Shown: piece after piece, positions 5,814 to 25,322 of the stretch | Layout: each line of letters begins with the position of its first letter | Numbering within the stretch: the stretch's first letter is position 1 | Assembly (NCBI GenBank): GCA_040220235.1 | Contig: JAVJTO010000084.1 | Reading direction: 5' to 3' (one strand) | DNA length: 64,000 bases | From: Coleofasciculus sp. B1-GNL1-01 | GTDB taxonomy: Bacteria; Cyanobacteriota; Cyanobacteriia; Cyanobacteriales; Coleofasciculaceae | Made by a program: the position numbers and the translations under genes | The notes under the pieces: model-generated | Seen by the model: only the letters and a program-made list of their open reading frames with translations | Database searches by the model: none | What the model was told of the DNA's origin: nothing

Positions 5814-6422
5814 TCACTTATTCAAGCTTTGTAGAAGAATTTCAACGAGCCGATATACGTGTGTTCCTGGTGTAGGAGGCCAATTTTGTGTCGCTGTTGG
5901 ATGTAGCTGCTTGGCACGAGCTACCGCATCTGCGATCTTGGGTTCATCATATAAAGATAGATCAAGTTTACTACTATTGTAACTTCCTAAAAGCATTCTT
6001 AGTCTTGCTTTGAAATTTTTGCAACTTGTATCCTGGGGATTTAAATCGGAAAAGTGTAGACACAACCAAACTTCAAAACAGGGATTGCTGATAGCTAAAT
6101 AATAATTTTTTTGTTTAGCTTCACGACAAACTGAGCTTAAATTTTGAGACGTCCAACGATCTACATCAAAAACCAGCCAAAGCATATCATCGTCATTTAG
6201 ATCATACATCTCCTTAAAGTCATTTAAACGGGCTAAAACATACTGAGGAGCAGATTTATGATCATCTCCTGTAGCTAGGACTTCTACTTTAATTTTGGTA
6301 CTCTGAAACAGACCAAAATATTGCTTTTCGGTGGCTTCTCCTTCAGTAGCAATGATGAAAAGCTTTGCATCTCTTCGATCATGCTGACGATCTAGTAGCT
6401 TGGTTCGATTGATTCTGCTCAT
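5814..6422 (-). CDS. rloB: RloB family (TOPRIM-like) protein
   Basis: IATEGEATEKQYF, VFDVD and SNPCFEVWL.LHF motifs; 14 bp downstream of an ATPase gene. Confidence 0.85.
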   Translation of the reverse strand: MSRINRTKLLDRQHDRRDAKLFIIATEGEATEKQYFGLFQSTKIKVEVLATGDDHKSAPQYVLARLNDFKEMYDLNDDDMLWLVFDVDRWTSQNLSSVCREAKQKNYYLAISNPCFEVWLCLHFSDLNPQDTSCKNFKARLRMLLGSYNSSKLDLSLYDEPKIADAVARAKQLHPTATQNWPPTPGTHVYRLVEILLQSLNK

Positions 6423-6436
6423 TAGTTATAGCTGAT

Positions 6437-7828
6437 TTAAACAGACAAATCAGTTTCACAATTCAACCATCCTAAACGTTGTGGATCTCCAAAGAAAGGA
6501 ATAGCACCAAAACGACCGTTTAAGTAACCTTTTTCAACTTTCAAGTCAGGTCTGATTTTGAATTCGGCTAAAGAATAAAGACTTGATGCACCTTGCTGAT
6601 TCTTTTCAACAAACCAAATCTCATCCCGTCGCAGTAAATCTAAATCGAGTAGGTTAGTGTCATGAGTTGTAAAGATTAATTGATTACTTTTTTTTCTACA
6701 GTTTATTGCTGTTTGCACAAAACAATGAGACAGTAGCGGATGTAATCGTCTATCAAGTTCATCTAAAAAAATGACTTTTTCAGGTTCTTGCTTCAAAAGA
6801 AAGAGAATCGGGATAAGATTAAGTAAACGTTGAGTGCCTTCTGACTCTTCTTCAATTGTGAAATCAATCAGATTTCCGTTGTCATTGCGATGTTTAGTTT
6901 TCAATTGAATTAACCTTACTTTACCCTCTTTATTTTTGCGGATTAGATACCGTTTACCTCGAATATTACTCCCTATTAATGCTAGTGCTTCTTCATCCGC
7001 CTGATTAAGTTCTTGTATTAAATCATCTATGACAAGTTTAGGCATATTTGGAAAATGATAATCAATGTCGAGTTCAATTTCCTCAGTGCTGATCGAATCA
7101 ATCCCTGTTCCGGCAAATCGAAGAAATTCACTGATAAAATTGATATATGATTCATCACCAAGGATGCCAATTTCTAATCCCGGATAGTCAGCCTCGGCTG
7201 GAATAATAGTCAGTGCTTCTCTAAACCAGTTAGCCACCGGAACTAATACATCAACATTGCGGTCAATCGCTTCTGTTAAAAAAAGTTGGTTAGGGCGAGT
7301 CCCTTCAGCCACGAAATCAAGGAATTGTTTGCGTTTATTACTTCTACCTTTAAGAGGCGTGCCATAGTCTAAATTTGTTTCTTTTTTTGAAGAAGTGATG
7401 CGTTCAAAATACATTACTTCTTGTTTTTTGTCATGAGGAATACCATAAAGCCATTCCTCAAAAATTTGTTCTCTATTCAATCTAAATCCATAAGAGTACT
7501 GGATGCCTTGATACGTAAATATACATTCAAATTTACTGGGTTTTTGACTATAATTCCCCAGTTTAAATGGGATAACTGGAATTGATTGAGTGCTTCTAGT
7601 TCCTTCTACAACTAAATCTTTGGCAAACTTTACAGCCTCTATAAGATTTGATTTACCTGCTGCATTTGCCCCATAAATTGCGGCGAGTGGTAGCAGTGAG
7701 CGATCTTTCCCGGCTGCATTGTTAGCCAGATGTTCTAAATGTTTTTGGTCACTGTTAACGCCTAGCATACTGAACGTAACTTCATCTCTAAAAGATAAAA
7801 AGTTTTGTAAAGTTAGTTGAATTAGCAT
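6437..7828 (-). CDS. RloA/AAA_21-type ABC-like ATPase
   Basis: NFLSF, Walker A YGANAAGKSN, signature ESEGT, Walker B IFLDELD..LHP, QLIFTTH, Y..GRFGAIP. Confidence 0.88.
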   Translation of the reverse strand: MLIQLTLQNFLSFRDEVTFSMLGVNSDQKHLEHLANNAAGKDRSLLPLAAIYGANAAGKSNLIEAVKFAKDLVVEGTRSTQSIPVIPFKLGNYSQKPSKFECIFTYQGIQYSYGFRLNREQIFEEWLYGIPHDKKQEVMYFERITSSKKETNLDYGTPLKGRSNKRKQFLDFVAEGTRPNQLFLTEAIDRNVDVLVPVANWFREALTIIPAEADYPGLEIGILGDESYINFISEFLRFAGTGIDSISTEEIELDIDYHFPNMPKLVIDDLIQELNQADEEALALIGSNIRGKRYLIRKNKEGKVRLIQLKTKHRNDNGNLIDFTIEEESEGTQRLLNLIPILFLLKQEPEKVIFLDELDRRLHPLLSHCFVQTAINCRKKSNQLIFTTHDTNLLDLDLLRRDEIWFVEKNQQGASSLYSLAEFKIRPDLKVEKGYLNGRFGAIPFFGDPQRLGWLNCETDLSV

Positions 7829-8275: not shown

Positions 8276-10963
8276 TTATCTATCTATATTTACAGGAGTG
8301 TACTTTTGACAAAGGTGGAATGCATCAGAATGAGTCTTGGCGTGAACAGGATTGTCGTTTCCGATTAGGCTGACACACCCTTGCTGCAACAGCTTGTTCA
8401 GATTCAAATTCCACAAGCGAATTGTTCCATCCGAATTCGCTAATGCTAATTGTTCACCATCCGGGGAAAAGCTAACCTTGGCGACTGGATTTTTATGACT
8501 CGGTAAGGCTTTAAGTAATGTACCATTTTGATGCCAGAGTCTGACGCGGTTATCGGTACTTGTCGTGGCTAACATTTGGTTATCTGCACTAAAGCTAAAG
8601 CTGGTGACTGGCTTAGTATGGTGTAAGATGTTCTGCAATGTGCCATTTTTACGCCAGAGTTTCACTGTACCCTCTGTACTGCTAGAGGCAATGAGTTGAC
8701 TATTGGGACTAAATTGGATATCAATAATCGCATCAGTGCTTGCATCAAAGGTGTGGAGTAATTGACCATCCCGACACCGCCACAGTGCGATCGCGCCTTG
8801 GTGATCTACAGTTGCTAGTTTATCACCGTTGGCAGAAAAACGGACATGGGAAATATGGGGACGAGTTAACGTTTGCGCTAATTGATTCTCCAGATATTGC
8901 CACAGTTGAATCTCCTTATCGGTACTAATGGCAATTTGTTGGCGGTTGGGATTAAAACTGATACTGGTTATCGTATCAGCATCAACGTTTACAGTTGCCT
9001 GTCGTTGACCCTTTTGATCCCAAACTTGAATTGTACCATCAGCGCTAGCACTGGCGAGGGTTTGGCTATCGGAACTAAAGCTAAGATTAAGAATGCGATC
9101 GCCTGCTTCCTGTAAGGTATAAACTCGGTTAGATTTATCGGGATCACTCCGATGATGCCACAGCTTTACTGTACCATCCTGATAAGCGACAGCCACCATC
9201 TGACTATCAGGACTAAACTGAAACTGAGTCACTGGGGAAGAATGTCCGGGTAAAGTATTCGGCTGACTGAAACTCGAAATCACTTGATTGAATGCCATAA
9301 TTACCCGCATTTTGGTATCCGCTGTCACGCCGAGAGACTGTTTCAGTTCTTTGGTGGCGCGAATACTTTCGATGAGTGCATCTCGCGGTTTATTAGTGGC
9401 TAAAAGGGATTCGGATAATAAACTCAGGGTATTGATTTTAATATTCCGTTCTTCGATAGAGGGTTTAACCCAAAAGACACTTATTAATACTGTTATAATT
9501 ACCGCCGCTGCCCCCGTGAGATATTGAAATCTTAACTGCTGTTCCCGATTTAATTTCGCTTGGATTAATTTTCGCTGCTGTTGTTCTTTCGTCAATTCTT
9601 CCAGTAATTCTTTTTCGCGACGCAGTTGCTTAATTTCCGCTTGATTTTGGCTTTCGATTTGCCGTAACTGGGTTAGGGTTGCTTCTTGAGACGCCGCGAG
9701 GAAATGATAGTCGCGATCGCTTAAACTTTTCCCTGTCGCCCAATCTTGAGCATCTTGTAAAGCCTGTCCGCGCAATAATCGGGATTCATCTTGACAATCT
9801 GAGGCAAACCAAGCGGTTAACGCTTCACTGTATGGGCGTAATTCAGCCAGGGCATTTTCTACCCAATTGGCGGTAAAAATCGACTGATAAATTCGGTTTT
9901 TGACTCTGAGTTTTCCCCTTTGACAAACCACTAATCCACTCAGGCATAATTGAGCTTGTTCTGGACTCTCATCAGCAATCAGTTCTCCTTGGTGTAAAAT
10001 TCGCTGATAAAGTCCCAATAATCGACCCGCCAATTGCTCATTTTTGAGAATGCGATCGCGGATAGTCCGGATATGGGCAGGTTCATCCTGAGATTCCCAG
10101 TTTTCCAGGAGTTGAGATTGGACAATTTGCCCAATTAAGGGTGAATTTAAATCGTTGATTGAATCATTAATAGTCGAGTGATGCACCCCGACTAGGCTTG
10201 AATGTTGCACCACTACTTTACAGAGTTTTTGGGTTAAGAAAGGTTGTCCACCTGTCCAGGTTAAAATCTCTTGCAATACAGTTTCAGGATGATTAACATT
10301 TCCCGCTAATCCCTGAATCAACGGTTGGCAATCTTGGAATTGAAACCCCTGCAATTCTATCGCCCGACCAATATTAAAAGGGGTGCGAGTGGGGTCACTA
10401 ATTAAATCCGAGGGTGTAGCAACTCCGACTAGGACAAACGTCAGGCGTTGATAATCACTATTTTGGGCGCGTTTATTATAGCAGGCGCGAATCAAGGCAA
10501 AAAAGTCATCGGCAGCTTCCTGCAAGCTGAGAATACTATCGATTTCATCGATAAAAATAACAATAGGTTGAAATAACTCTTTCAGCAGTACCGTTGAAAG
10601 AAGTTCACTCAATCGCTGCACCGGAGACATCCAATCTCGCCCTTGCCACCAATCCATAAATTCCAGGGGATTGAATAGATTAAAGCTATTCAATAACTGA
10701 TAGGCTACACCGCCATACCACTGATCCAGGGATTGGCTACCAATATCCGATAAATCAATTGCAGCACAGGCAAATCCTTCCGCAGATAGCTTTTGCATGG
10801 TGCGAACCAGTAAGCTAGATTTACCCATTTGTCGGGAATTAAGGACATAACAAAATTCTCCAGCTTTGAGTCCTTTATAGAGTTCCGTGTCTGCTTGTCG
10901 GATAATATAGGTGGGGGCATCTTCAGGTAGACTACCACCGATTTGGTAAGGAAAATTAGTCAT
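8276..10963 (-). CDS. AAA-like (AAA_35/STAND-type) ATPase - coiled coil - TM - WD40 repeat protein
   Basis: [15 protein letters not shown] (Walker A), IFIDEID (Walker B), GGQPFLTQK, one hydrophobic helix, ~7 FSPD/DGTVKLW repeats; ATG 10963 overlaps the upstream stop (ATGA). Confidence 0.88.
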
Positions 10964-12327
10964 AACTTCAGCCAATCTAATAGTTCTTGAATTAACCAGG
11001 TACTTTCCTGTTCACCCAAAGCACCGCCCAGTTTATACGTACCCCGTGTTGATGGAATTCTGACTTCATAAATAGACCCCCGATTCACTAGGAAGGGATT
11101 CCCAATATTTGTAATGGATTGCTGCTGGCGACCATATTTGAAGAACCCTGTCTGTCGCTCTAGCTGGAATAGGTTACGATGGCGATCCAATAAAACGTGA
11201 GTTTTTTGACCAAAAAAATTAGCCAGTAAAGCAACAAATGCTGTTAATAATGCTAAGACTATCAACAGCCCCATTAATGCTGGTTTATCTATTAGCAAAA
11301 TAACTTGATTTATCAAGGCAAAAAATAAAGCTAAAGTAAAGTAGCCGAAAATGATAGCTCCCAGCCAGCTATATTGGATTATTTTACGAAGTCCCGGTGC
11401 AGGAATTGTAATCACGAGTTGTTTCATGGATTTATTAATATTGATTTTAATCAGACTCCCTGACGGTTTATAAGTTTTGATTCGAGTCGGATTAGGCGCG
11501 GCAGTAGAGAGATTAACATGTCCTGATATTAGCGATTTCATAGCTTGTTTGGCGGTGCTAAAGCGCTTTTCTAACCCAATTTCCGTCATCTGCTCAATCC
11601 AAGGGATAAAATGGGAGTTAATACTTATGCGATCGCGAAAATAAATCCGCCCTTCTTTTTGAGGTAAATCAGCCGGGGCTGTACCCGTTAGTAGGTGAAT
11701 TAAAGTTGCGCCCAACGCATATAAATCGGAAGCCGCCACCGCCCGTCCCAAAAACTGTTCTAAGGGCGCATAACCACTCGTCCCCACCACAGTAAACGTC
11801 ACTCCGGTAACAGCCGCTTGCGCTTGTACTGCCCCAAAATCCACCAGATAAACTTGCTTGTCTTCACCTAAAATCAGATTACTGGGTTTAATATCTCGGT
11901 GCAATACGGGCGGACTCAATTCGTGTAAATAAATCAGAATATCTAGAACTTGAGTCGCAATCGCACGAACCTGTGTCTCACTAAACCGTTTATTTTTATC
12001 TAATAATTCTTGAAGCGAATCTCCCGGAATATAGTCTTGCACCAGTCCAAACCACGGCAACTGTAACCCCGCTTCTTTGTCTAAGGAAAAATAATCACGA
12101 TAGCGGGGAATTCGGGGATGATTCAGGGCTTGTAAAACTTGTGCCTCGCGTTCAAATAGTTTAAGTTCCTCCCACTGCATTTCCGGGCTAAAGGCTAATA
12201 GCTTAACCGTCACTTGTTCATTAGATTGTAAATCCGTCGCTAACCAAGTTTGTCGCCCTGCTGCTGTGCGCCCTAATCTTTGATGGAGCTGGTATTGTTC
12301 TTTTAAACATTGATCACGATTGAACAC
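10960..12327 (-). CDS. Ser/Thr protein kinase, class A copy A4 (kinase, 2 TM, C-terminal domain)
   Basis: [22 protein letters not shown]; two hydrophobic helices; GTG start with GAGGT RBS. Confidence 0.9.
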
Positions 12328-12485: not shown

Positions 12486-13994
12486 TTACCCATAGTCCGC
12501 TAGCCAATCTTGAATTTCTTGACGCAGCCAGTTCGCTTCAGATTGAGTTAAGTAGTTTGCCAAGGGATAGGTATTAACTTCAGCCTGCCCAGAAACTGAT
12601 TGACCTAAACGTTGGCTACTATAATAGTTATTGGTTCTAGTTTGGAGATAGATAGCACGCCCATTGTTTCCTATAAATACGTTTTTAATGTCTGAAGTAT
12701 TTCCCCGGCAATGTAAATGCTCAATAACGAATTGATTAAAATTAATTTTTATTGAATATCCCCCCAGGTTAGCAATGCTTGTTTTTTTTATGTCCTGCAA
12801 ATACTTTCCTAGTGTATTGTAACCTAGTGACACCAAATGAGATAAGCATAAAATCAATATCCCGCTAACAAACGCAATCAAAAAAAACATGAGCAGGCTA
12901 GTTGATGAGAATTCTTTTAAGACTATGCTTACCACTATACCAAGTGTCGCAAATACAACTCCACCAGCAGCAGATACTAAAAGTAATGTCAGCAATGCCC
13001 AGACAATGAATAAGCTAAAATACAAGGCGCACTTTAATCCATTTTTAAACACTATTTCCCAAAATAGTAGTCTGTCTTGATGGATTTGCAAAATAATTTC
13101 TCGCGGCGATTTATGAACTTGAATTCGACTCAAAAAAGGAGGCTGAATAGTTTCCAATTGCTCAGGAATCGATCGCCCCGTTTCTAATGCATCAAGTGCT
13201 TGATTTGCACAACTCAAGCGTAAGCCTAAGTCAGGTTCCGTCAAGGCTTCAATCCAGCTGATCAACTGAGAATTAATACTCACCTGATTCCGAAACTGTA
13301 TCCGTAAATTCCGTTGGGGTAAATCCGCCGGCGGAATACCCGTTAACAAATGAATTAACGTCGCGCCCAAAGCATAGAGATCAGACGCAGGAACCGCTTG
13401 TCCCCAAAACTGTTCCAAGGGGGCATATCCGCTTGTCCCCACCACAGTAAACGTCACTCCTTCTACCGCCGCACTGTTTTGCACTGCACCAAAATCCACT
13501 AAATAAACCTGCTTCTCGTCTCCTAAAATCAGGTTACTCGGCTTAATATCCCGATGCAATACAGGGGAATTTAACCCATGTAAATAGGCGAGAATTTCCA
13601 GCACTTGTTTAGCAACTGAACGAACTTGTGACTCCGTAAACCGCTTTCCCTCATTCAGTAACTGCTGTAAGGATTTTCCGGGAATATAATCCTGTACCAA
13701 GCCAAACCAACACAACCCCGCGCCTATTTGTTGATCCAACGAAAAGTAATCACGGTATTTAGGAATCCGGGGATGATTCAGTTGCTTCAGCACCGCCGCT
13801 TCCCGTTCAAATAACTTAAACTCATCCCACTCCATCTGGGGATTAAACGCCAGTAACTTAACTGTCACCTGTTCGCCAGACTGTAAATCGTGAGCTAACC
13901 AGGTTTGTCGCCCTGCGTTATTCCCTAACTGATGTTGCAGTTGATAACGTTCCTTTAACGATTGATTGGGATTAAATAAATGATGATCTATCAT
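12486..13994 (-). CDS. Ser/Thr protein kinase, class A copy A3
   Basis: Intact Hanks motifs; long hydrophobic hairpin; C-terminal L...SEA.WL..EI.DWL motif shared with other class A copies. Confidence 0.9.
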   Translation of the reverse strand: MIDHHLFNPNQSLKERYQLQHQLGNNAGRQTWLAHDLQSGEQVTVKLLAFNPQMEWDEFKLFEREAAVLKQLNHPRIPKYRDYFSLDQQIGAGLCWFGLVQDYIPGKSLQQLLNEGKRFTESQVRSVAKQVLEILAYLHGLNSPVLHRDIKPSNLILGDEKQVYLVDFGAVQNSAAVEGVTFTVVGTSGYAPLEQFWGQAVPASDLYALGATLIHLLTGIPPADLPQRNLRIQFRNQVSINSQLISWIEALTEPDLGLRLSCANQALDALETGRSIPEQLETIQPPFLSRIQVHKSPREIILQIHQDRLLFWEIVFKNGLKCALYFSLFIVWALLTLLLVSAAGGVVFATLGIVVSIVLKEFSSTSLLMFFLIAFVSGILILCLSHLVSLGYNTLGKYLQDIKKTSIANLGGYSIKINFNQFVIEHLHCRGNTSDIKNVFIGNNGRAIYLQTRTNNYYSSQRLGQSVSGQAEVNTYPLANYLTQSEANWLRQEIQDWLADYG

Positions 13995-14089: not shown

Positions 14090-16096
14090 TCACGGTGAAG
14101 GTTTATAACGCTCAATTGCCGTCATTGCTTTATCTTTACCGCCATAGTATAATTGAATGGTTTCAGTAATCTGAACCGCTCGTTTCTGCTCACCTATAGC
14201 CACTAACCGACGCACCATCGCATCTAAGGCTTTAGCTTTTTGTTCGTAGTTGGTGATTGTGTTAGCCACCTGAATTGCTTGTTCATACTCAGTCGCCGTG
14301 GTTAAATACGGTGCGATCGCTGCTATGGTATTACTGCGAATCGAGTCATGGGGGATAGTACGAGTCACTGTCAGGGCTTGGGTATACTCACCAGCATCTG
14401 TTAAGTTGAGTGCGATCGCTTGTACCCTTTCGATGATGGGCAAGGCTGGATCATATTCACTAGCCGCCGCTAACTCCAAGGCAATGACGGCTAATACCTT
14501 TGCCTTTAGCCATTCGTCTGTAATCGTTTCCGCAATCTGAACCGCTTGCTCAGTCTTACCTGTAACCGTTAAATTAGTGGCAATAATCTCCAATGCCTTT
14601 GCCTTAAACCATTCGTCTGTAATCGTTTCCGCCGTATCAAGGGCTTGATTATACTCACCAGCACTGGCATAATTAGCCGCACGCTCTGCTAAATTCCAAT
14701 CGTTCCCGATAAAAGAGCCTCCATTAATTTTTACTGTATTCGGGGCGCATTGAATCACCCCCTCTTGCACAATTGGTGCTGGGGGGCGATTAGTACCCAA
14801 AGATTTTGCCTTACACAGAATTGTAAATGTCGATCCTCTTGTTCTTTCAACGCTACCCCAAAAAACACCGCCAACATAGCTCTTTTAATTGGATTTACGG
14901 GAAACACCATAGTTAATGGAACTCAGGGGCGTGGTATGACTGGAATAGCTATAGTTTTTTGTTTCAGAGATAATACCTAATTCCAGATTTTTTACATTAT
15001 CAGTAAATGCATTTTTATCGAGGAAGTAGGCTTGCTGGGCGCGATTCATTGCACCAACATATTGTTTAGCTTCTGACTGCTTAGCTTGATGAGCCGCATT
15101 TGAAAAGAATAGAGAAATTAGTCCCCCCAAACCAATTAGTCCGAGCAACGCTAAACAACCACAACCATACCCACCATCTGTGTCAGATAAAGGGCTAATT
15201 GATTTTTGGGCGGAGAATTTACTGGGGTGAGAAATAAAACAAGATTGCAACGAAGACAACGCTTGACGTGCTGTACTCAACCGTTTTTCCGGTGCAGGTT
15301 GAATTAACTGGTTAATCCAGTTGGCAAAATTCGGATTAATTCGGACTTTATCTTGAAACTTGATCCGCATTTGCTGCTGGGGCAATTCCGCCGGCGGAAT
15401 CCCTGTTAATAAATGAATTAGCGTTGCACCCAAGGCATAAAAATCAGAGGCAGGTACAGCCTTTCCCCATAACTGTTCTGGTGGTGCATAACCACTGGTT
15501 CCCACCACTGTAAACGTAGCACCTTCAGCTTTGGCTTTGTCTTGCACAGCACCAAAATCTACCAGATAGATTTGGTTATTTTCCCCCAAAATCAGATTAC
15601 TTGGCTTAATATCGCGGTGGAGAACAGGCGGACTTAATTCGTGTAGCTCGATTAAAATCTTGAGCAAATCCTCAGCAAACTGACGCACCTGATTTTCGCT
15701 AAACGGTTTCCCTTGCTCTAATAACTGTTTGAGAGAGTCACCGGGAATATAGTCTTGCACCAAACCAAACCACGGTAATCCGGTGACATGGGAGGTATCA
15801 CTATTATTATCAGCAGAAGATGCTTCTAAACTCGCTCCAACACCATCCACAGAAAAATAATCCAGATATTTAGGAATGCGAGGATGATTAAGATTTTTGA
15901 GAACTTGAGCTTCTCGTTGAAACAACTTTAAATCATCCCACTGCATCTGAGGATTAAATGCCAGCAATTTAACCACAACATCTGCTGGTGGTGAGGCTTG
16001 CATATCCGTGGCTAACCAAGTTTGTCGCCCCGCATTTTGCCCCAATTTTTGTTGTAGCTGATAGCGATCGCGTAAAACTTGTCCTGCACTTAACAT
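14090..16096 (-). pseudogene. Class B kinase-TM-pilin G/H-helical repeat gene (B3) split by an in-frame stop
   Basis: ORFs 14885-16096 and 14090-14800 are in the same frame; TAA at 14885-14887 aligns with TTA (Leu) in paralog B1 and the intervening 28 codons read KSYVGGVFWG... Confidence 0.85.
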
Positions 16097-16257: not shown

Positions 16258-18189
16258 TCACTGTGAAGTTTTATAACGCTCAATTGCCGCCATCGCTTTT
16301 CCTTTACCACCATAATAAGATTGGATGATTTCAGCAATCTGAACCGCTCGTTTATGGTTCCCTGTAGCGACTAATCGGCGTACAATGGCATCCAAGGCTT
16401 TGGCTTTTGGTTCATAGTCCGTAATCGTTTTAGCTACCTGAATGGCTTGTTCATACTCAGCAGACGTGGTTAAATAGGGTGCGATCGCTTGGATAGTTTT
16501 ACTCTTAATCGAATCATCGGTGATATGACGAGTTACTTTCAAGGCTTGCTCAGACTCACCAGCATCAGTTAACTTGAGTGCGATCGCTTGTATCTTTTCA
16601 ATGATTGTCAAAGCTTGCTTAGACTTACCCATCGCCACTAACTCCGTGGCAATAACCTCAAGTGCTTTGACTTTAACCCAACGCTCTGTAATCATTTCCG
16701 CAGTATCAAGGGCTTGATTGTACTTACCAGCTTTCGCGTAATTAGCCGAACGATAAGCTAACTTCCAATCTTCCCCCAGAAAAATTCCTTTTTCATCCTC
16801 TCCATAAGACTTGAGCTTTACTGTCTCCGGGGCGCATTGAATCACACCATCTTCTACAATTGGTGCTGGAGGGCGATGAGTACCGGGAGATTCTGCCTCA
16901 CACAGAATTGCAAATGTTGTCATCTCTCCTGTTGCTGCAGCGTCACCCAAAAATACAGCGCCCACATAGCCTTTCATCTTTGATTTTTTGGAAACGGCAT
17001 AGTTAATAACGCTCAAGTAATTTGTATGCATTGAATAGGTATAGTTTTCTGTTTCAGTGTTAAATCCCAGTCCCAGTTCAGCAATAGCATCAGTAAAATT
17101 ACTTTCCTCTAAAAAATAAGCTTGCTGGGCGCGATTCATTGAACTAATATATAGTTTTGCTTCTGACTCTCTGGCTTTACCAGCGCTATTAAGAAATGAA
17201 GGAATTACTATGATAATAAAGCCAATTCCCATTAGTCCTAGCCAAGCCAAGCAGCCACAACCGTAACCACTTTTCGTATCCGATGAACGGTTTATTGATT
17301 GTTGCACAGGAATTTGATTCTGGTGATAAATAAAACAGGATTGCAGCAAAGAAAAAGCCTGACGTGCCGTACTCAACCGTTTTTCCGGTGCAGGTTGAAT
17401 TAACTGCTCAATCCAGTTAGCAAAACTCGGCTCAATCTTGACTTTATCTCGAAACTTAATCCGCATTCGCTGCTGGGGCAATTGAGACGGCGGAATCCCT
17501 GTTAATAAATGAATCAAAGTCGCACCCAAAGCATATAAATCTGATGCAGGTACAGCTTTTCCCCATAACTGTTCAGGGGGTACATAACCACTGGTTCCCA
17601 CTACTGTAAATGTAACCCCTTCAGCTTTGGCTTTGTCTTGCACAGCACCAAAGTCTACCAAATAAATTTGGTTATCCTCCCCCAAAATAAGATTACTCGG
17701 CTTAATATCACGATGGAGAACAGGCGGACTTAATTCGTGTAGCTCGATTAAAATCTTGAGCAAATCCTCAGCAAAATGACGCACCTGATTTTCGCTAAAT
17801 CGTTTCCCCTGATCCAATAGCTGTTTGAGAGATTCACCGGGAATATACTCTTGTACTAAAGCAAACCAAGGTAAGTCAGTTACATTAGACTTATCATTAT
17901 TATCGGCAGCATATTCTTCTAAACCCGCCTCGATATCATCCATTGAAAAATAATCAAGATACTTCGGAATGCGAGGATAATTGAGATTATTAAGAACTTG
18001 AGCCTCTCGTTTAAACAGCTTCAACTCATCCCATTGCATCTGGGGATTAAACATCAAAAATTTAACCACAACGGTTTTTGGCGGTGAGGCTTGAGTATCC
18101 ATCGCTAACCAAGTTTGCCGCCCTGCATTATGTCCCAACTGTTTTTGTAGCTGATAGCGATCGCGTAAAACTTGTCCTGAACTTAACAT
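16258..18189 (-). CDS. Ser/Thr kinase fused to type IV pilin-like G/H domain and helical repeats (B2)
   Basis: Kinase motifs; GYGCGC + TM; KARESEAK.YISSMNRAQQAYFLE..F..I.ELGLG pilin G/H-like signature with two Cys; 33-aa repeats. Confidence 0.88.
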   Translation of the reverse strand: MLSSGQVLRDRYQLQKQLGHNAGRQTWLAMDTQASPPKTVVVKFLMFNPQMQWDELKLFKREAQVLNNLNYPRIPKYLDYFSMDDIEAGLEEYAADNNDKSNVTDLPWFALVQEYIPGESLKQLLDQGKRFSENQVRHFAEDLLKILIELHELSPPVLHRDIKPSNLILGEDNQIYLVDFGAVQDKAKAEGVTFTVVGTSGYVPPEQLWGKAVPASDLYALGATLIHLLTGIPPSQLPQQRMRIKFRDKVKIEPSFANWIEQLIQPAPEKRLSTARQAFSLLQSCFIYHQNQIPVQQSINRSSDTKSGYGCGCLAWLGLMGIGFIIIVIPSFLNSAGKARESEAKLYISSMNRAQQAYFLEESNFTDAIAELGLGFNTETENYTYSMHTNYLSVINYAVSKKSKMKGYVGAVFLGDAAATGEMTTFAILCEAESPGTHRPPAPIVEDGVIQCAPETVKLKSYGEDEKGIFLGEDWKLAYRSANYAKAGKYNQALDTAEMITERWVKVKALEVIATELVAMGKSKQALTIIEKIQAIALKLTDAGESEQALKVTRHITDDSIKSKTIQAIAPYLTTSAEYEQAIQVAKTITDYEPKAKALDAIVRRLVATGNHKRAVQIAEIIQSYYGGKGKAMAAIERYKTSQ

Positions 18190-18231
18190 GAGTTACTCCT
18201 GGGAATTATAATTTATTAATTACATCCGTTG

Positions 18232-19635
18232 TTAACAATTTGCCAGCCAATTTTTAATTTCACAAACCAGCCAACTTGATTCAGATAGTGTTAGTCGATT
18301 TGCCAAACAATAGTCTTCCTTTCTTGTCTTGAGATAGATGGCTTTACCTGAATGGTTACTACCTACTCCTTGAATCTCTGAAAGGAGTAGATGGAAATCA
18401 AATCTCTGACAAGTCAATTCCTCCATGTCAAATACTACAGAGTATCCCCAGAAATTAGCACGTATAAGATTACGGATATCTCTGTACATTTTTTTTAAAT
18501 GAATCAGCCCTTCTTTATTCAAAAGAATCCAAAGCCCAAATATATAAAGACTTGCTATTATTGTTAAAAATGGCATAAAGAATAAATTCTTTAATATATT
18601 AAACCCAATTAAGGTTAGGCATAAATCTACAAATAACAATGATAAAATTAAACTAAAGAATAGAATTAATTTCATGAATAAAAATACGGGAATATTCACA
18701 AAGCACATTATTCCTTTTGCAGCAAAATAAACAATAAGTTTATTTTTGTTTTTCTCAAGCTTAATTCGTGTTGAAAAAGGCGGACATACAGTTTCTAACG
18801 GATAACGAATAGATTGCCCTGTTTCCAATGCATCAAGAGCTTGACTAGCACAACTCAAGCGCAAATCTAGGTCAGGTTCCGTCAAGGCTTCAATCCAACT
18901 TATCAACTGAGGGTTAATACTCACCTGCTCCCGAAATTGTATGCGTAAATTTCGTTGCGGCAAATCAGCCGGAGAAACACCTGTTAATAAATGAATTAAC
19001 GTCGCGCCCAAAGCATAGAGATCCGAAGCCGGAACCGCTTGTCCCCAGAACTGTTCCAATGGTGCATATCCACTCGTTCCCACCACGGTAAACGTCACTC
19101 CTTCTACCGCCGCACTATCTTGCACCGCACCAAAATCAACTAAATAAATCTGCTTATCCTCTCCTAAAATCAGATTACTCGGCTTAATATCTCGGTGTAA
19201 TACTGGAGAATTTAACCCATGTAAATAGATGAGAATATCCAGCACTTGTTTAGCAATCGAACGAACCTGTGACTCCGTAAAACGCTTTCCCTCATTCAGT
19301 AACTGCTGTAAAGATTTGCCTGGAATATAATCCTGCACTAAGCCAAACCAACATAACCCCGCCCCAATTTTTTGATCCAAGGAAAAATAATCCCGATACT
19401 GAGGAATTCGAGGATGATTCAGTTGCTTTAGCACCGCTGCTTCCCGTTCAAACAACTTAAACTCATCCCACTCCATCTGGGGATTAAACGCCAGTAACTT
19501 CACCGTCATCTGTTCACCAGACTGTAAATCTTGAGCTAACCAGGTTTGACGCCCTGCATTGTTCCCTAATTGCTGTTGCAGTTGGTAACGTTCCTTTAAG
19601 CATTGGTTGGGATGAAACAAAAAATTATCTCTCAT
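18232..19635 (-). CDS. Ser/Thr protein kinase, class A copy A2
   Basis: Kinase domain nearly identical to A1; divergent AT-rich TM hairpin. Confidence 0.9.
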   Translation of the reverse strand: MRDNFLFHPNQCLKERYQLQQQLGNNAGRQTWLAQDLQSGEQMTVKLLAFNPQMEWDEFKLFEREAAVLKQLNHPRIPQYRDYFSLDQKIGAGLCWFGLVQDYIPGKSLQQLLNEGKRFTESQVRSIAKQVLDILIYLHGLNSPVLHRDIKPSNLILGEDKQIYLVDFGAVQDSAAVEGVTFTVVGTSGYAPLEQFWGQAVPASDLYALGATLIHLLTGVSPADLPQRNLRIQFREQVSINPQLISWIEALTEPDLDLRLSCASQALDALETGQSIRYPLETVCPPFSTRIKLEKNKNKLIVYFAAKGIMCFVNIPVFLFMKLILFFSLILSLLFVDLCLTLIGFNILKNLFFMPFLTIIASLYIFGLWILLNKEGLIHLKKMYRDIRNLIRANFWGYSVVFDMEELTCQRFDFHLLLSEIQGVGSNHSGKAIYLKTRKEDYCLANRLTLSESSWLVCEIKNWLANC

Positions 19636-19734
19636 AATACCCTTTCTCTGTAATCATGCAACGAATAAATCCTCTGGGCTATCGCCACCAAAATAGTTCT
19701 TATTAAGATGTATCAGATTCATGATGTTTATGCC

Positions 19735-21777
19735 TCATCGGTAATTTTTATAACGCTCAAGTGCTGCCATCGCTTTATCTTTACCACCATAGTAAGATTG
19801 GATAGTTTGAGCAATCTGAACCGCTCGTTCAGGGTTTCCCGTAGCGACTAATCGGCGTACAATGGCATCCAAGGCTTTGGCTTTTAGTTCGTAGTCTGTA
19901 ATCGTTTTAGCCACCTGAATCCCTTGTTCATACTCAGCAGACGTGGTTAAATAGGGTGCGATCGCTTGGATAGTCTTACTCTTAATCGACTCATCTGTGA
20001 TACTACGAATTACTCGCAAGGCTTGTTTATACTCAGCAGACGTGGTTAAGTAGGATGTGATCGCTTGAATCGTCTTACTCTGAATCGAGTCATCGGTGAT
20101 ATGACGAGTCACTCTCAGAGCTTGGGTATACTCACCAGCATCAGTTAACTGGAGTGCGATCGCTTGTATCCTTTCAATAATTGTCAAAGCTTGCTTAGAC
20201 TTACCTACCACCATTAACTCCGTTGTAATTAAGTCCAGTGCTTTTACCTGAATCAAGTCATTTGTAATCGTTTCCGCAGTATCAAGGGCTTGGGTATACT
20301 CACCAGCTTTCGCGTAATTAGCTGAAACATCTACTAACTTCCAATCTTCCCCCAGAAAAATGCCCCGATCATTTTCTCCATCAAGATTTTCTGTACCCGG
20401 AGCGCATTGAAGCATACCATTTTCTACAATTGGTGCTGGGGGGCGATTAGTACCCTTATCTTTTGTCTCACACAAGATAGCTAATGTTGTTAATTCTCCT
20501 GTTGCTTCAACCCTACCAAAAAACACACCGCCCACATAACTCTTTAAATCGGATTGGCGGGAAACACTATAGTTGATCGAACTCAAAAGAGTGGCATAAG
20601 TTGAATAGGTATAGTTTGTGGTTTCACTTTTTACACCAAGTCCTAGCTCGTCAAATTCATTCGTAAAATTAGCCTTCTCTAAAAAATAAGCTTGCTGGGC
20701 GCGATTCATTGAACCAATATACTGTTTTGCTTCGGATTGCATTGCTTTATCAGCGCTACTAAGAAATGAAGGAGTTAATAGGAAAATAAAGCCAATTCCA
20801 ATTAGTCCGAGCAAAGCCAAGCAGCCACAACCGTAGCCACTATCATTATCAAAATAGCGATCATCTACATAGCGTCTTGAGTGTTGAGCAGGGATTTGAT
20901 TGTGGTGAGGAATCAAAGAGGATTGCAGTGCAGAAAAAGCTTGACGTGCCGTACTCAACCGTTTTTCCGGTGCAGGTTGAATTAACTGATCAATCCAGTT
21001 AGCAAAATTTGGCTCAACCTTGACTTTATCTTGAAACTTAATCTGCATTCGCTGCTGAGGCAATTGAGATGGCGGAATCCCTGTTAATAAATGAATTAAA
21101 GTCGCACCCAAGGCATATAAATCTGATGCAGGTACAGCTTTTCCCCATAACTGTTCAGGGGGCGCATAACCACTGGTTCCCACTACTGTAAATGTAACCC
21201 CTTCAGCTTTGGCTTTGTCTTGCACAGCACCAAAGTCTACCAAATAAATTTGGTTATTTTTTCCTAAAATTAGATTGCTGGGCTTAATATCACGGTGAAG
21301 AACAGGCGGACTCAATTCGTGTAAATAGATTAAAATATTGAGCAAGTCCTCGGCAAAATGACGCACCTGATTCTCCTTAAACCGTTTCCCTTGATCTAAT
21401 AACTGTTTGAGAGAACTACCGGGAATATACTCTTGCACTAAAGCAAACCAGGGTAATCCGTTTACGTTAGACTGATCACTATTTTTATTATCGATAGAAG
21501 AGTCTTCTAAACCCGCTTCAACATCATCCACTGAGAAATAATCCAGATACTTCGGAATGCGAAGATGGTTTAGATTCTTTAGAACTTGAGCCTCTCGTTG
21601 AAACAGCTTCAACTCATCCCATTGCATCTGGGGATTAAACGCCAGCAATTTAACCACAACGGCTGTTGGCGGTGAGGCTTGTGTATCCATCGCTAACCAA
21701 GTTTGCCGCCCTGCATTATGTCCTAATTGTTTTTGTAGCTGATAGCGATCGCATAAAACTTTTCCTGCGCTTAACAT
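19735..21777 (-). CDS. Ser/Thr kinase fused to type IV pilin-like G/H domain and helical repeats (B1)
   Basis: Same architecture as B2 with one extra 33-aa repeat. Confidence 0.88.
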   Translation of the reverse strand: MLSAGKVLCDRYQLQKQLGHNAGRQTWLAMDTQASPPTAVVVKLLAFNPQMQWDELKLFQREAQVLKNLNHLRIPKYLDYFSVDDVEAGLEDSSIDNKNSDQSNVNGLPWFALVQEYIPGSSLKQLLDQGKRFKENQVRHFAEDLLNILIYLHELSPPVLHRDIKPSNLILGKNNQIYLVDFGAVQDKAKAEGVTFTVVGTSGYAPPEQLWGKAVPASDLYALGATLIHLLTGIPPSQLPQQRMQIKFQDKVKVEPNFANWIDQLIQPAPEKRLSTARQAFSALQSSLIPHHNQIPAQHSRRYVDDRYFDNDSGYGCGCLALLGLIGIGFIFLLTPSFLSSADKAMQSEAKQYIGSMNRAQQAYFLEKANFTNEFDELGLGVKSETTNYTYSTYATLLSSINYSVSRQSDLKSYVGGVFFGRVEATGELTTLAILCETKDKGTNRPPAPIVENGMLQCAPGTENLDGENDRGIFLGEDWKLVDVSANYAKAGEYTQALDTAETITNDLIQVKALDLITTELMVVGKSKQALTIIERIQAIALQLTDAGEYTQALRVTRHITDDSIQSKTIQAITSYLTTSAEYKQALRVIRSITDESIKSKTIQAIAPYLTTSAEYEQGIQVAKTITDYELKAKALDAIVRRLVATGNPERAVQIAQTIQSYYGGKDKAMAALERYKNYR

Positions 21778-21816: not shown

Positions 21817-23220
21817 TTATTGACAATTTGCTAGCCAATCTGTGATTTCACCAACTAACCATTTTGATTCAGATGGTTTTAGTCGATTGACTAAACAGTA
21901 GTTTCCTGTTCTTGTCTTGAGATAGATAGCATTACCCGAATGATTACTACCTACTTCTCGAATCTCCGCAAGGCGTAAATAACGATCAAATCTCTGACAA
22001 ATAGATTTTTCTGCATCAAACACTATAGAGTATCCCCAAAAAACAATTTTTAAACTGCTAATATCTCTGTACATTGCCTTTAAATGAGATACTCCTTCTT
22101 GTAGTAATTTTATAGTTAAAGTTATCCAAAATATATTTGTCATCAATACAAATATATTCATCAAATTCACCAAAGCTCCAAAAATACTAAATATTAGAAC
22201 TAAAACTATAATTATTAAAAGTATAATCAAAGCGACAAAAGGAATTAGTTTCAACATAAAAAAGTAAGCTTCTAGGGGAACCAAGAGTCGGCTTGTAGGC
22301 AAATCAATGACAAGTTTATTTTGACTTTTTTTAAGCTTAATTCGTGTTGAAAAAGGCGGATGTACAGTTCCCAATGGATAACCCATAGAACGAATCGATC
22401 GCCCGGTTTCCAATGCATCAAGAGCTTGACTCGCACAACTCAAGCGCCAATCTAGGTCAGGTTCCGTCAAGGCTTCAATCCAACTGATCAACTGAGAATT
22501 AATACTCACCTGATCCCGAAATTGTATGCGTAAATTTCGTTGCGGTAAATCAGCCGGAGAAACACCTGTTAATAGATGAATTAACGTCGCGCCCAAAGCA
22601 TAGAGATCCGAAGCCGGAACCGCTTGTCCCCAGAACTGTTCTAAGGGTGCATATCCACTCGTTCCCACCACAGTAAACGTCACTCCTTCTACCGCCGCAC
22701 TATCTTGCACCGCACCAAAATCAACTAAATAAATCTGCTTATCCTCTCCTAAAATCAGATTACTCGGCTTAATATCTCGGTGCAATACAGGTGAATTTAA
22801 CCCATGTAAATAGATAAGAATCTCCAGCACTTGTTTAGCAATTGAACGAACCTGTGACTCCGTAAAGCGCTTTCCCTCATTCAGTAACTGCTGTAAGGAT
22901 TTGCCGGGAATATAATCCTGCACTAAGCCAAACCAACATAACCCCGCCCCAATTTTTTGATCCAAGGAAAAATAATCCCGATATTGAGGAATTCGGGGAT
23001 GATTCAGTTGCTTTAGCACAGCCGCTTCTCGTTCAAACAGCTTAAACTCATCCCACTCCATCTGGGGATTAAACGCCAGTAACTTAACTGTCACCTGTTC
23101 GCCAGACTGTAAATCTTGAGCTAACCAGGTTTGACGCCCTGCATTATTCCCCAATTGCTGTTGCAGTTGGTAGCGTTCCTGTAAACGTTGCTTGGGATTA
23201 AACAAGAGATTAGTTTTCAT
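21817..23220 (-). CDS. Ser/Thr protein kinase, class A copy A1
   Basis: [24 protein letters not shown] hairpin; conserved C-terminal domain. Confidence 0.9.
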   Translation of the reverse strand: MKTNLLFNPKQRLQERYQLQQQLGNNAGRQTWLAQDLQSGEQVTVKLLAFNPQMEWDEFKLFEREAAVLKQLNHPRIPQYRDYFSLDQKIGAGLCWFGLVQDYIPGKSLQQLLNEGKRFTESQVRSIAKQVLEILIYLHGLNSPVLHRDIKPSNLILGEDKQIYLVDFGAVQDSAAVEGVTFTVVGTSGYAPLEQFWGQAVPASDLYALGATLIHLLTGVSPADLPQRNLRIQFRDQVSINSQLISWIEALTEPDLDWRLSCASQALDALETGRSIRSMGYPLGTVHPPFSTRIKLKKSQNKLVIDLPTSRLLVPLEAYFFMLKLIPFVALIILLIIIVLVLIFSIFGALVNLMNIFVLMTNIFWITLTIKLLQEGVSHLKAMYRDISSLKIVFWGYSIVFDAEKSICQRFDRYLRLAEIREVGSNHSGNAIYLKTRTGNYCLVNRLKPSESKWLVGEITDWLANCQ

Positions 23221-23324: not shown

Positions 23325-24359
23325 TCACTGGGAATATTGATAACGCTCAATTACTGCCATTGCGTTATCTTGACCGCCATAGTAAGATTGGATAGTTTGA
23401 GCAATCTGAACCGCTCGTTTAGGGTTCCCTGTAGCAATTAATCGACGTACAATGGCATCCAAGGCTTTGGTTTTTGGTTGATAATCTGTCATCGTTTTAG
23501 CCACCTGAATCGCTTGCTCATGCTCAGTCACTGTGGTTAAATAAGGTGCGATCGCTTGGATAGTCTTACTCTTAATCGAGTCATCGGTGATACTGTGAGT
23601 TACTCTCAAGGCTTGCTCAGACTCACCAGCATCAGTTAAGTTGAGTGCGATCGCTTGTATCTTTTCAATAATTGTCAAAGCTTGCTTAGACTTACCAGCA
23701 GCCGCTAATTCCGTGGCAATAACCTCAAGCGCTTTAGCTTTAACCCAGCTCTCTGTAATCGTTTCCGCAGTATCAATGGCTTGATTGTATTCACCAGCTT
23801 TCGCGTAATTAGCTGAAATATATGCTAACTTCCCATCTTCTCCGATAAAAATTCCCTGATTATTCCCTCTATCAATACTTTCTGTACCCGGAGCGCATTG
23901 AAGCGTACCATCTTCTACAATTGGTGCTGGAGGGCGATTAGTACCGGGAGATTTTGCCTGACATAGAATTGCAAATGTTGTCGATTCTCCTGTTTGTTCA
24001 ATGTTACCAAAAAACACACCGCCAACATGGCTCTCTAAATCGGATGTTCGGGAAACGCTATAGTTAATGACGCTCAAAGGAGTGGCATGACTTGAATAGG
24101 TATAGTCTGTGGTTTCAGTGCTAATACCTAGTCCCAGTTCAGCAATATTATCGGTAAAATTACCTTCCTCTAAAACATAATCTTGCTGGGCGCGATTTAT
24201 TGAGCCAATATAGTGTTTAGGTTCGTATTGCTGTGTTTCACGAGCGATATTAGTAAATTCAACTAATAGATAATATAGTCCTAACAAGCCAATTAATCCC
24301 AACAAAGCCAAGCAGCCACAACCATAGCCACTATTTGTATCATTTGTATCAGCAGTCAT
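23325..24359 (-). CDS. Kinase-less type IV pilin-like G/H + helical repeat protein (B0)
   Basis: Starts MTADTNDTNSGYGCGC with AGGAG-containing RBS; collinear with the C-terminal half of B1-B3. Confidence 0.8.
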   Translation of the reverse strand: MTADTNDTNSGYGCGCLALLGLIGLLGLYYLLVEFTNIARETQQYEPKHYIGSINRAQQDYVLEEGNFTDNIAELGLGISTETTDYTYSSHATPLSVINYSVSRTSDLESHVGGVFFGNIEQTGESTTFAILCQAKSPGTNRPPAPIVEDGTLQCAPGTESIDRGNNQGIFIGEDGKLAYISANYAKAGEYNQAIDTAETITESWVKAKALEVIATELAAAGKSKQALTIIEKIQAIALNLTDAGESEQALRVTHSITDDSIKSKTIQAIAPYLTTVTEHEQAIQVAKTMTDYQPKTKALDAIVRRLIATGNPKRAVQIAQTIQSYYGGQDNAMAVIERYQYSQ

Positions 24360-24515: not shown

Positions 24516-25322
24516 CTACCCTTGAAGCTGCATCAAATAATAAGCCATGGGAATAATTCCAAAGGAACCCACTTGCATCGACATAACCGTCATTGCCAGA
24601 TTAGGATGCTTCTGCTTTAATAAACCTGCGATCGCAAACCCCTTCGTTACAAAACCCAAAATAAAGCCAATCAGCAGTAACCCGGCTGTCACAGCATACA
24701 GAAAAGCTAGGTTTGCCGAACTATCCATAGCGCTAATCAGAACTAACGTAGCAAAGCCCAAAGCCATGAAGAAAAGATAAACACAAAACTTAAACATCCC
24801 TTGACTGATATTTTTCAAATACCCCCGACGCTGACAGAATGAAAGACACATCGCCGCCGATAAAATCGAGCCAATGAGAGCCAGAGGAAACATTACACTT
24901 AAAGAAACCCAACTAACCAAACTAGCCAACAGATAAAACCCATTCGCCAACCCTGCTATCACAAAAGCTTTTCGGAAAGGAATTAACTCTCGTTTGCACA
25001 GGATAAAAGATTCAATTAAAACCGTAGCCAATAAGGGTAATCCATACCCATACATCAATGACATAGCCGGAAGTGTAATTAGACTAGAGCCAAATAACCA
25101 TCCTCTATTCAATCCACCACAAGCCAAGGCGGGTAATGTCAGCATTAGCAGTAAGGAGACTGTACCTCCTGTCACCTTGAGCCAAGATAGTCTCGGCGAC
25201 TGCGGCTTAACAGGGATACCCCGGAAAGGAACCAAGGGAGCAGGTGTCAGAGGAAGCAGGGTTAAATCCAGGCTTGGCTTCTGTGTCATTGGTATTCTCC
25301 AGCAACTCGTGTTATGTCCCAT
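24516..25322 (-). CDS. Multi-pass membrane protein, first gene of the kinase array
   Basis: About 6-7 hydrophobic segments after a signal-like PALA site; start may be the second Met (25289). Confidence 0.7.
   Translation of the reverse strand: MGHNTSCWRIPMTQKPSLDLTLLPLTPAPLVPFRGIPVKPQSPRLSWLKVTGGTVSLLLMLTLPALACGGLNRGWLFGSSLITLPAMSLMYGYGLPLLATVLIESFILCKRELIPFRKAFVIAGLANGFYLLASLVSWVSLSVMFPLALIGSILSAAMCLSFCQRRGYLKNISQGMFKFCVYLFFMALGFATLVLISAMDSSANLAFLYAVTAGLLLIGFILGFVTKGFAIAGLLKQKHPNLAMTVMSMQVGSFGIIPMAYYLMQLQG

Follow-up and report, generated by a model that had tools for sequence, protein, structure and literature searches.

This work describes an array of Hanks-type Ser/Thr kinase genes, three of which also encode a type IV pilin-like domain, in a 64,000-nucleotide stretch of DNA (the window) from the cyanobacterium Coleofasciculus sp. 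B1-GNL1-01 (GenBank assembly GCA_040220235.1, contig JAVJTO010000084.1). On the minus strand, the reading order is B0, A1, B1, A2, B2, B3, A3, and A4, followed by an AAA_35-WD40 gene. B1 to B3 encode the kinase-pilin fusions, B0 is a kinase-less counterpart, and the A genes encode kinases of a second type; the closest named relatives are from Coleofasciculus. The vertical bar below marks the prepilin cleavage position.

B1, 19735..21777, minus strand, 680 amino acids: Hanks kinase (residues 1-285), linker, G|YGCGC, probable pilin alpha1-N membrane helix, Pilin_GH head (residues 347-459), and 7 helical repeats
B1 GYGCGC, 20821..20838, minus strand: Gly-1 and Tyr+1 aligned with the G|F of prepilins, and Cys where prepilins have Glu5
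B1 pilin head, 20401..20739, minus strand: invariant pair Cys436/Cys458
B2, 16258..18189, minus strand, 643 amino acids: architecture as in B1, with 6 helical repeats
B2 GYGCGC, 17251..17268, minus strand
B2 pilin head, 16831..17169, minus strand
B3, 14090..16096, minus strand: architecture as in B1 and B2, interrupted in this strain by a stop codon in frame at 14885-14887
B0, 23325..24359, minus strand: kinase-less; 11-residue leader, GYGCGC, helix, pilin head, and repeats; position kept in relatives
A1, 21817..23220, minus strand: Hanks kinase followed by a predicted PH-like domain that is split by a membrane hairpin; lies immediately upstream of B1
A2, 18232..19635, minus strand: A-type kinase directly upstream of B2
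A3, 12486..13994, minus strand: A-type kinase that belongs to the paired clade and lies downstream of B3
A4, 10960..12327, minus strand: A-type kinase of a widespread unpaired clade

The fusion of a kinase, a membrane helix, a Pilin_GH domain, and TPR-like repeats is genuine in B1 to B3. B1 and B2 both exceed the Pfam cutoffs for Pkinase (E values of 2e-32 and 1.1e-31, respectively) and for Pilin_GH (PF16734; 1.4e-31 and 7e-32). Their kinases look intact, retaining the catalytic motifs VVVK, HRDIKP, DFG, and P-P-E-Q, with an atypical Gly-rich loop of the form G-x-N-A-G-R. A hydropathy scan found a single hydrophobic segment in each protein, starting at GYGCGC, and no earlier signal. The junction reads GYGCGCLA(L/W)LGL, followed by the membrane segment, SEAKxYxxxMNRAQQAYFL, and a head with two cysteines. 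Downstream of the head lie 6 to 7 helical units, mostly of 33 residues as against the 34 of TPR; the Pfam TPR profiles scored below cutoff, while TPR proteins gave the best Foldseek matches (E value of 6e-5, TM score of 0.22). The PknB/PASTA kinase model NF033483 gave 107 bits against a cutoff of 450, through the kinase part only, and an ESM Atlas search with residues 310-680 of B1 returned no usable match. Transcription of the stretch is not evident from the RNA runs, which contain it only as contigs with a depth like that of DNA runs.

A preliminary description of this DNA, made from the sequence alone, had assigned the fusion to the interval 16258-21777 and the complete architecture to all three B genes. 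The succession of kinase, linker, GYGCGC-helix, SEAK motif, two-Cys head, and repeats stands for B1 and B2, which the interval holds; B3 lies outside it, and A2, a kinase of the other type, lies inside. B3 is also broken by a TAA in frame at 14887-14885, within the pilin head. Since this position is a sense codon in three of four public runs, with the same stop in the fourth, and since the homologue P0021 is whole, we regard the stop as a strain allele.

Pilin features of the membrane helix and head

An AlphaFold model of B1 residues 314-680 was built from an alignment of 90 sequences and had a predicted local distance difference test score (pLDDT) of 88.9; the presence of true prepilins in the alignment may have aided the modeling. 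It shows a helix (residues 6-20), a break at Pro22, a second helix (23-55), a four-strand meander, a Cys-bounded tail, and an alpha-solenoid, and the two head cysteines are invariant across the 90 sequences. Using VIA-align, model residues 2-146 were superposed on residues 1-125 of Thermus PilA4 (6XXD) with a Z score of 10.6 and a root mean square deviation (rmsd) of 2.4 Å over 120 aligned residues; PilE and gonococcal pilin were also among the matches. Foldseek with the entire outer part of B1 retrieved solenoids only, the pilin match having come from VIA-align. Independently of the model, the sequence matched Myxococcus PilA, at an E value of 0.005 with B1 alone and of 5e-10 with a family profile. 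The pilin fold proposed in the preliminary description for the outer part is thus borne out by both profile and model.

The same register extends into the membrane. In 51 of 52 prepilins, Phe1 lies 43 residues from a particular Asn, and the Tyr of GYGCGC lies 43 residues from the same Asn in both B1 and B2. Gly-1 and the 21 mostly hydrophobic residues after it occupy the exact prepilin register in these two proteins, which is not so in most relatives. Glu5 is replaced by Cys in B1 and B2, and none of the 66 distinct kinase-pilin junctions compared, a set biased toward the window's clade, carries G-F-T-x-x-E. A hydrophilic leader of 6 to 26 residues is found only in B0 (11 residues); in B1 to B3, approximately 310 residues precede the site. 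Because G|YGCGC aligns exactly with G|FTLIE, the prepilin leader appears degenerate and not, as first proposed, exchanged for a kinase and a CxC motif.

Given that helix and head together align to full-length Thermus PilA4 and that the profile matches PilA, we assign the B membrane helix to pilin alpha1-N. Anchor and outer part together are likely to represent almost a whole type IV pilin. B shares with the type IVa pilins (Thermus PilA4 6XXD, Myxococcus PilA 8TJ2, and cyanobacterial PilA1) the alpha1-N helix, Pro22, alpha1-C, beta-meander, and Cys pair, and the window's clade also keeps Gly-1 and an aromatic residue at +1 in the same register. It differs in having lost Glu5, in carrying a 310-residue kinase region instead of a 6- to 26-residue leader, and in its added C-terminal solenoid. 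The position of the single helix after the kinase implies a cytoplasmic kinase, with the head and repeats facing outward into the periplasm.

A-type kinases and the A-to-B gene order

In the A-type proteins, a related Hanks kinase precedes a tail that AlphaFold models (pLDDT of 88.8) as two strands, then a membrane hairpin, then what remains of a PH-like domain. Foldseek ranked EROS first for the A tail (E value of 0.013), followed by PH domains (probability of 0.99, E values of 0.03-0.2), with nothing under an E value of 0.001; VIA-align also placed EROS first, over the whole length (Z score of 10.6, rmsd of 6.3 Å, 135 aligned residues). The Ycf4 Pfam profile matched none of 59 A tails, and a sequence search of the PDB with the A tail gave nothing under an E value of 0.7. 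As in the model of the A tail, the EROS (CYBC1)/Ycf4 fold (8KEI chain D) places a membrane hairpin inside a split PH domain; at that rmsd, identity to the A tail is 12%, and EROS is a free chaperone, whereas the A tail is fused to a kinase. In the accessible part of the report on EROS, the protein is termed a Ycf4 orthologue; two membrane helices split its PH domain, and it grips NOX2 through these helices and the PH domain (10.1101/2023.09.11.557130). Taken together, the model and its matches suggest that the A tail is a split PH domain with a membrane hairpin, most like EROS.

Gene order was scored in the loci examined, which held 36 kinase-pilin genes after one duplicate contig was dropped and with the window and a separate fusion on contig C17 excluded; the 31 genes with at least 600 bases upstream were used. 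An A gene, whole or partial, lay directly upstream of B in 29 of the 31: 26 were intact, two were represented by the A tail only (gene broken or cut), and one was truncated. One of the remaining B genes followed another B, and one followed neither. As a control, only 6 of 55 A genes were followed by a B, and A occurs alone in most cyanobacteria sampled. The pair is present on four unlinked contigs of this genome and, in a scan of 13 of the 64 parts of the collection, in Coleofasciculaceae, Oscillatoria, and Phormidiaceae-labelled records, in many chromosomal settings.

A quick kinase tree of 95 domains recovered a B-position clade (SH-aLRT support of 97) and, separate from the unpaired A kinases, a paired-A clade (93). 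In 20 pairs, the distance matrix for A was correlated with that for B (Spearman coefficient of 0.56, reached in none of 5,000 shuffles), and the nearest neighbor agreed in 10 of 20. Within a pair, the two kinases share 61-72% identity, from which we conclude that the adjacency began as a tandem duplication. Gene order and phylogeny are evidence of long A-B co-inheritance, not of contact.

Several neighboring genes were also noted. A multi-pass membrane gene at 24516-25322 heads the array; its homologue in other genera stands ahead of an AAA_35 gene and an A-tail gene without a kinase (loci L228-L231), a hint that the kinase array may fit into a neighborhood older than itself. We considered whether this gene and B0 are a split form of a multi-pass-pilin fusion on contig C75 and found no homology either way. 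At the other end, an AAA_35 ATPase with WD40 repeats (8276-10975) shares 16 bases with the end of A4; a link between AAA_35 ATPases and the kinase pair was rejected: such ATPases were seen at a few of the loci, but the genome has 37 AAA_35-type open reading frames (ORFs). Farther on, an AAA_21 ATPase and RloB-like gene pair (5814-7828) is a possible defense module. Elsewhere in this genome (contig C30; L132:4594-5708), a kinase-less helix-pilin gene adjoins a kinase-less hairpin-PH gene that matches the A tail weakly (E value of 0.006), an adjacency found only in this genus.

A candidate two-kinase receptor and competing explanations

We tentatively favor a reading in which B1 to B3 are single-pass Ser/Thr kinases built on a near-whole pilin and contribute the sensor to a two-kinase receptor whose other half is the A protein encoded directly upstream. 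The domain order, the modeled pilin fold, the loss of Glu5, the A-to-B gene order, and the separate, co-varying kinase clades are established, and of the possible extensions of these observations, an A+B complex, raised in passing in the preliminary description, is the best supported, by gene order and phylogeny only. In the proposed mechanism, the kinase would lie inside the cell, with the head and repeats in the periplasm, and B, without Glu5, would stay in the inner membrane as an uncleaved, parked pilin that does not polymerize. Its pilin helix may pack against the hairpin and PH-like domain of A, much as EROS clamps NOX2. Input at the pilin body would then alter A-B pairing, so that the two kinases phosphorylate each other's activation-loop threonines and become mutually activated. 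The helical repeats would be an optional extra and the CxC a detail at the level of the clade.

The likeliest input would be pilin subunits or the pilus assembly platform of the same membrane, which is the least certain step. Three points favor these ligands: the alpha1 helix is retained in full in B, membrane pilin already serves as a signal in the PilS model, and Synechocystis strains mutated in spkA, spkB, or spkE are impaired in pili or motility. PilS itself is a histidine kinase that is not known to have a pilin fold. The proposed logic resembles that of PilS-PilR in Pseudomonas, in which a membrane kinase reads pilin by intramembrane contact, but B is Ser/Thr kinase and pilin in one protein, and pilin sensing by B is a proposal. 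In the Pseudomonas inventory model, membrane pilin acts as the signal to PilS (Kilmury and Burrows 2016, as cited in PMC9210963). The Synechocystis kinases SpkA, SpkB, and SpkE, which affect pili or motility, are likewise cyanobacterial Ser/Thr kinases, and the accessible text mentions no pilin domain for them (PMC11863333).

A number of observations weigh against such a receptor. Linked genes are co-inherited irrespective of contact between their products, the kinase identity within pairs is high, and the loci counted are related, some perhaps from the same genome, and are not independent samples. Plain helical hairpins score within 1 of the EROS Z score for the A tail. The only pilus gene among the 56 of 93 neighbors scanned was pilD, 5.5 kb away from one locus. 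In three B-position kinases, the helix is followed by little or no outer domain. Of 30 loci with a kinase-less A-tail protein, just 3, every one from this genus, have a pilin next to it; one more such protein adjoins a B, and a general pairing of such proteins with pilins was rejected. Finally, Pilin_GH heads elsewhere are joined to trypsin, caspase, vWA, pentapeptide, and secreted domains, so a head need not concern pili.

This last point leads to the strongest alternative, a possible though less probable one: that A and B form a real receptor in which the head is a recycled, disulfide-stabilized periplasmic module with a ligand unrelated to pili, the paralogues having diverged to widen the ligand range. 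A generic ligand is nearly as likely as a pilin ligand. Pilin_GH was found in 45 of 121 genomes drawn evenly from the phylum, and all 131 matches outside this genome were examined. Contrary to the expectation that the domain usually follows a GFTLIE leader, 71 were of prepilin type (69 canonical and 2 near canonical), and in this genome the motif precedes only 1 of 15 Pilin_GH domains. The other 60, without a prepilin leader and on many unrelated proteins, comprised 3 after a kinase (in two genomes, one match being under the cutoff) and 57 after something else. The scarcity of pilus genes nearby also speaks for recycling, as does the uptake of many accessory domains by cyanobacterial kinases (PMC2176072, in its accessible part). 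Moreover, among the four copies compared, the heads are 62-71% identical, with ratios of nonsynonymous to synonymous substitution rates (dN/dS) of 0.47-0.81, against 84-88% and 0.16-0.25 for the kinases. Yet head dN/dS is nowhere above 1, and diversifying selection on the head was rejected accordingly; B has the full alpha1-N and Pro22 at their prepilin register, unlike secreted Pilin_GH fusions, which have lost them; and the B heads group with minor prepilins, if weakly, in a quick tree of mostly weak support.

Other pilin arrangements were encountered along with these. A second kinase-pilin-head fusion (L129:6796-8736, contig C17 of this genome) has a long Pro/Ser linker and no alpha1-N; frames as long as this one occur in several genomes of the genus. 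With a different kinase clade, a different head group, and no A gene, it looks separate in origin from B. One locus encodes a kinase with two pilin heads flanking helical repeats (L146:5986-8532), and another holds a cluster of six Pilin_GH genes whose leaders run from the canonical G|FTxxE to a degenerate G|W (L085:82-3506), a possible path from prepilin to anchored pilin. Small tandem GCGC-helix pilins lacking Glu5 occur in another family (L026, L027, L032, and L033), where two of the loci adjoin genes that are presumably SPFH/NfeD pairs and AAA_35.

A different, unlikely explanation treats the kinase as a giant prepilin leader in this clade: PilD would cut at G|Y, freeing the kinase to the cytoplasm and leaving a repeat-bearing minor pilin. 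The exact register of B1 and B2 allows for this, and B0 and its orthologues have leaders of 8 to 11 residues ending in SG|Y, even after loss of the CxC. In addition, processing requires Gly-1 but not Glu5, and pilins mutated at Glu5 assemble together with the wild type (PMC4471445). On the other hand, the leaders described in the accessible text of that source are of 6 to 26 residues, the G|Y site is found only in the window's clade and is missing from most of the 66 fusions, the spacing varies from 41 to 47 within the clade, and Tyr-Gly also occurs as RYG in relatives that do not look cleavable. Equally doubtful is a combination in which the pilin is both sensor and switch: B would join the pilin pool beside A, PilD would free the kinase by cutting at G|Y, and the repeat-tipped minor pilin would enter the pilus, wiring assembly to phosphorylation.

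It is less probable still that A and B are independent kinases whose adjacency is no more than a relic of the duplication by which B arose from A. Their identity, the many solitary A genes, and the one B without an upstream A would suit this explanation, but the order is kept in 29 of 31 cases, in several families and many unrelated chromosomal settings; the pair was reduplicated as a unit in the window; and paired A forms a distinct clade.

The CxC motif, for which the preliminary description had suggested acylation, metal binding, or dimerization, is a juxtamembrane feature of some lineages and not a hallmark of the fusion, and it cannot be central to the receptor. Its GYGCGCLA.LGL context, called invariant, is so only within the window, as B0 orthologues have GYSCGW and one B has GYDCGF. 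The association with the helix is not due to chance, since, of 7 GC[GSA]C words in 6,553 mechanical ORFs of the genome, 6 directly precede a hydrophobic helix, at its inner edge, and 5 of those are in Pilin_GH proteins. An unrelated single-pass protein with a basic start and GCGC before its helix (a 411-amino-acid ORF on contig C79) suggests a general juxtamembrane Cys signal. The CxC may be a real juxtamembrane signal, though it is not the basis of the receptor: it is present in 19 of the 66 junctions, absent from 47, and found in kinase-less pilins and the C79 protein. That it is a working part, through acylation, metal binding, or covalent dimerization, is most improbable despite this placement and the recurrence of GCGC ahead of the helix in 6 pilins from other genera that lack a kinase, given these absences and its loss from one B and from B0 orthologues.

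As a class, membrane-bound Hanks kinases that have recruited outer domains are well known; a pilin body as the outer part appears to be new. PknB, PrkC, and StkP, for example, are membrane Hanks kinases with outer PASTA repeats. B shares with them and with cyanobacterial Ser/Thr kinases an N-terminal kinase, a linker, one membrane helix, and an outer domain, and it differs in that the outer part is a pilin body and in its fixed pairing with a second kinase. The fusion is already in databases (36 of 51 database matches, including the query, carry both Pkinase and Pilin_GH), and we found no literature on a Pilin_GH/PF16734-kinase fusion or on the A-B pair in a search covering mainly openly accessible papers. 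A survey of cyanobacterial Ser/Thr kinases reports 14 accessory domains, a pilin body not among them, and the word "pilin" occurs 0 times in its accessible text (PMC2176072).

Should the head be no more than a recycled module, it would be one more such accessory domain, of modest importance. For a very common cyanobacterial kinase family with an uncharacterized tail, the A models suggest a partner-clamping fold of the EROS/Ycf4 type. Synechocystis Ser/Thr kinase mutants have pilus and motility defects, with no signal or sensor domain linking the two named in the accessible text (PMC11863333); a pilin-bodied kinase with a fixed partner would provide a concrete candidate pair in gliding filamentous cyanobacteria.

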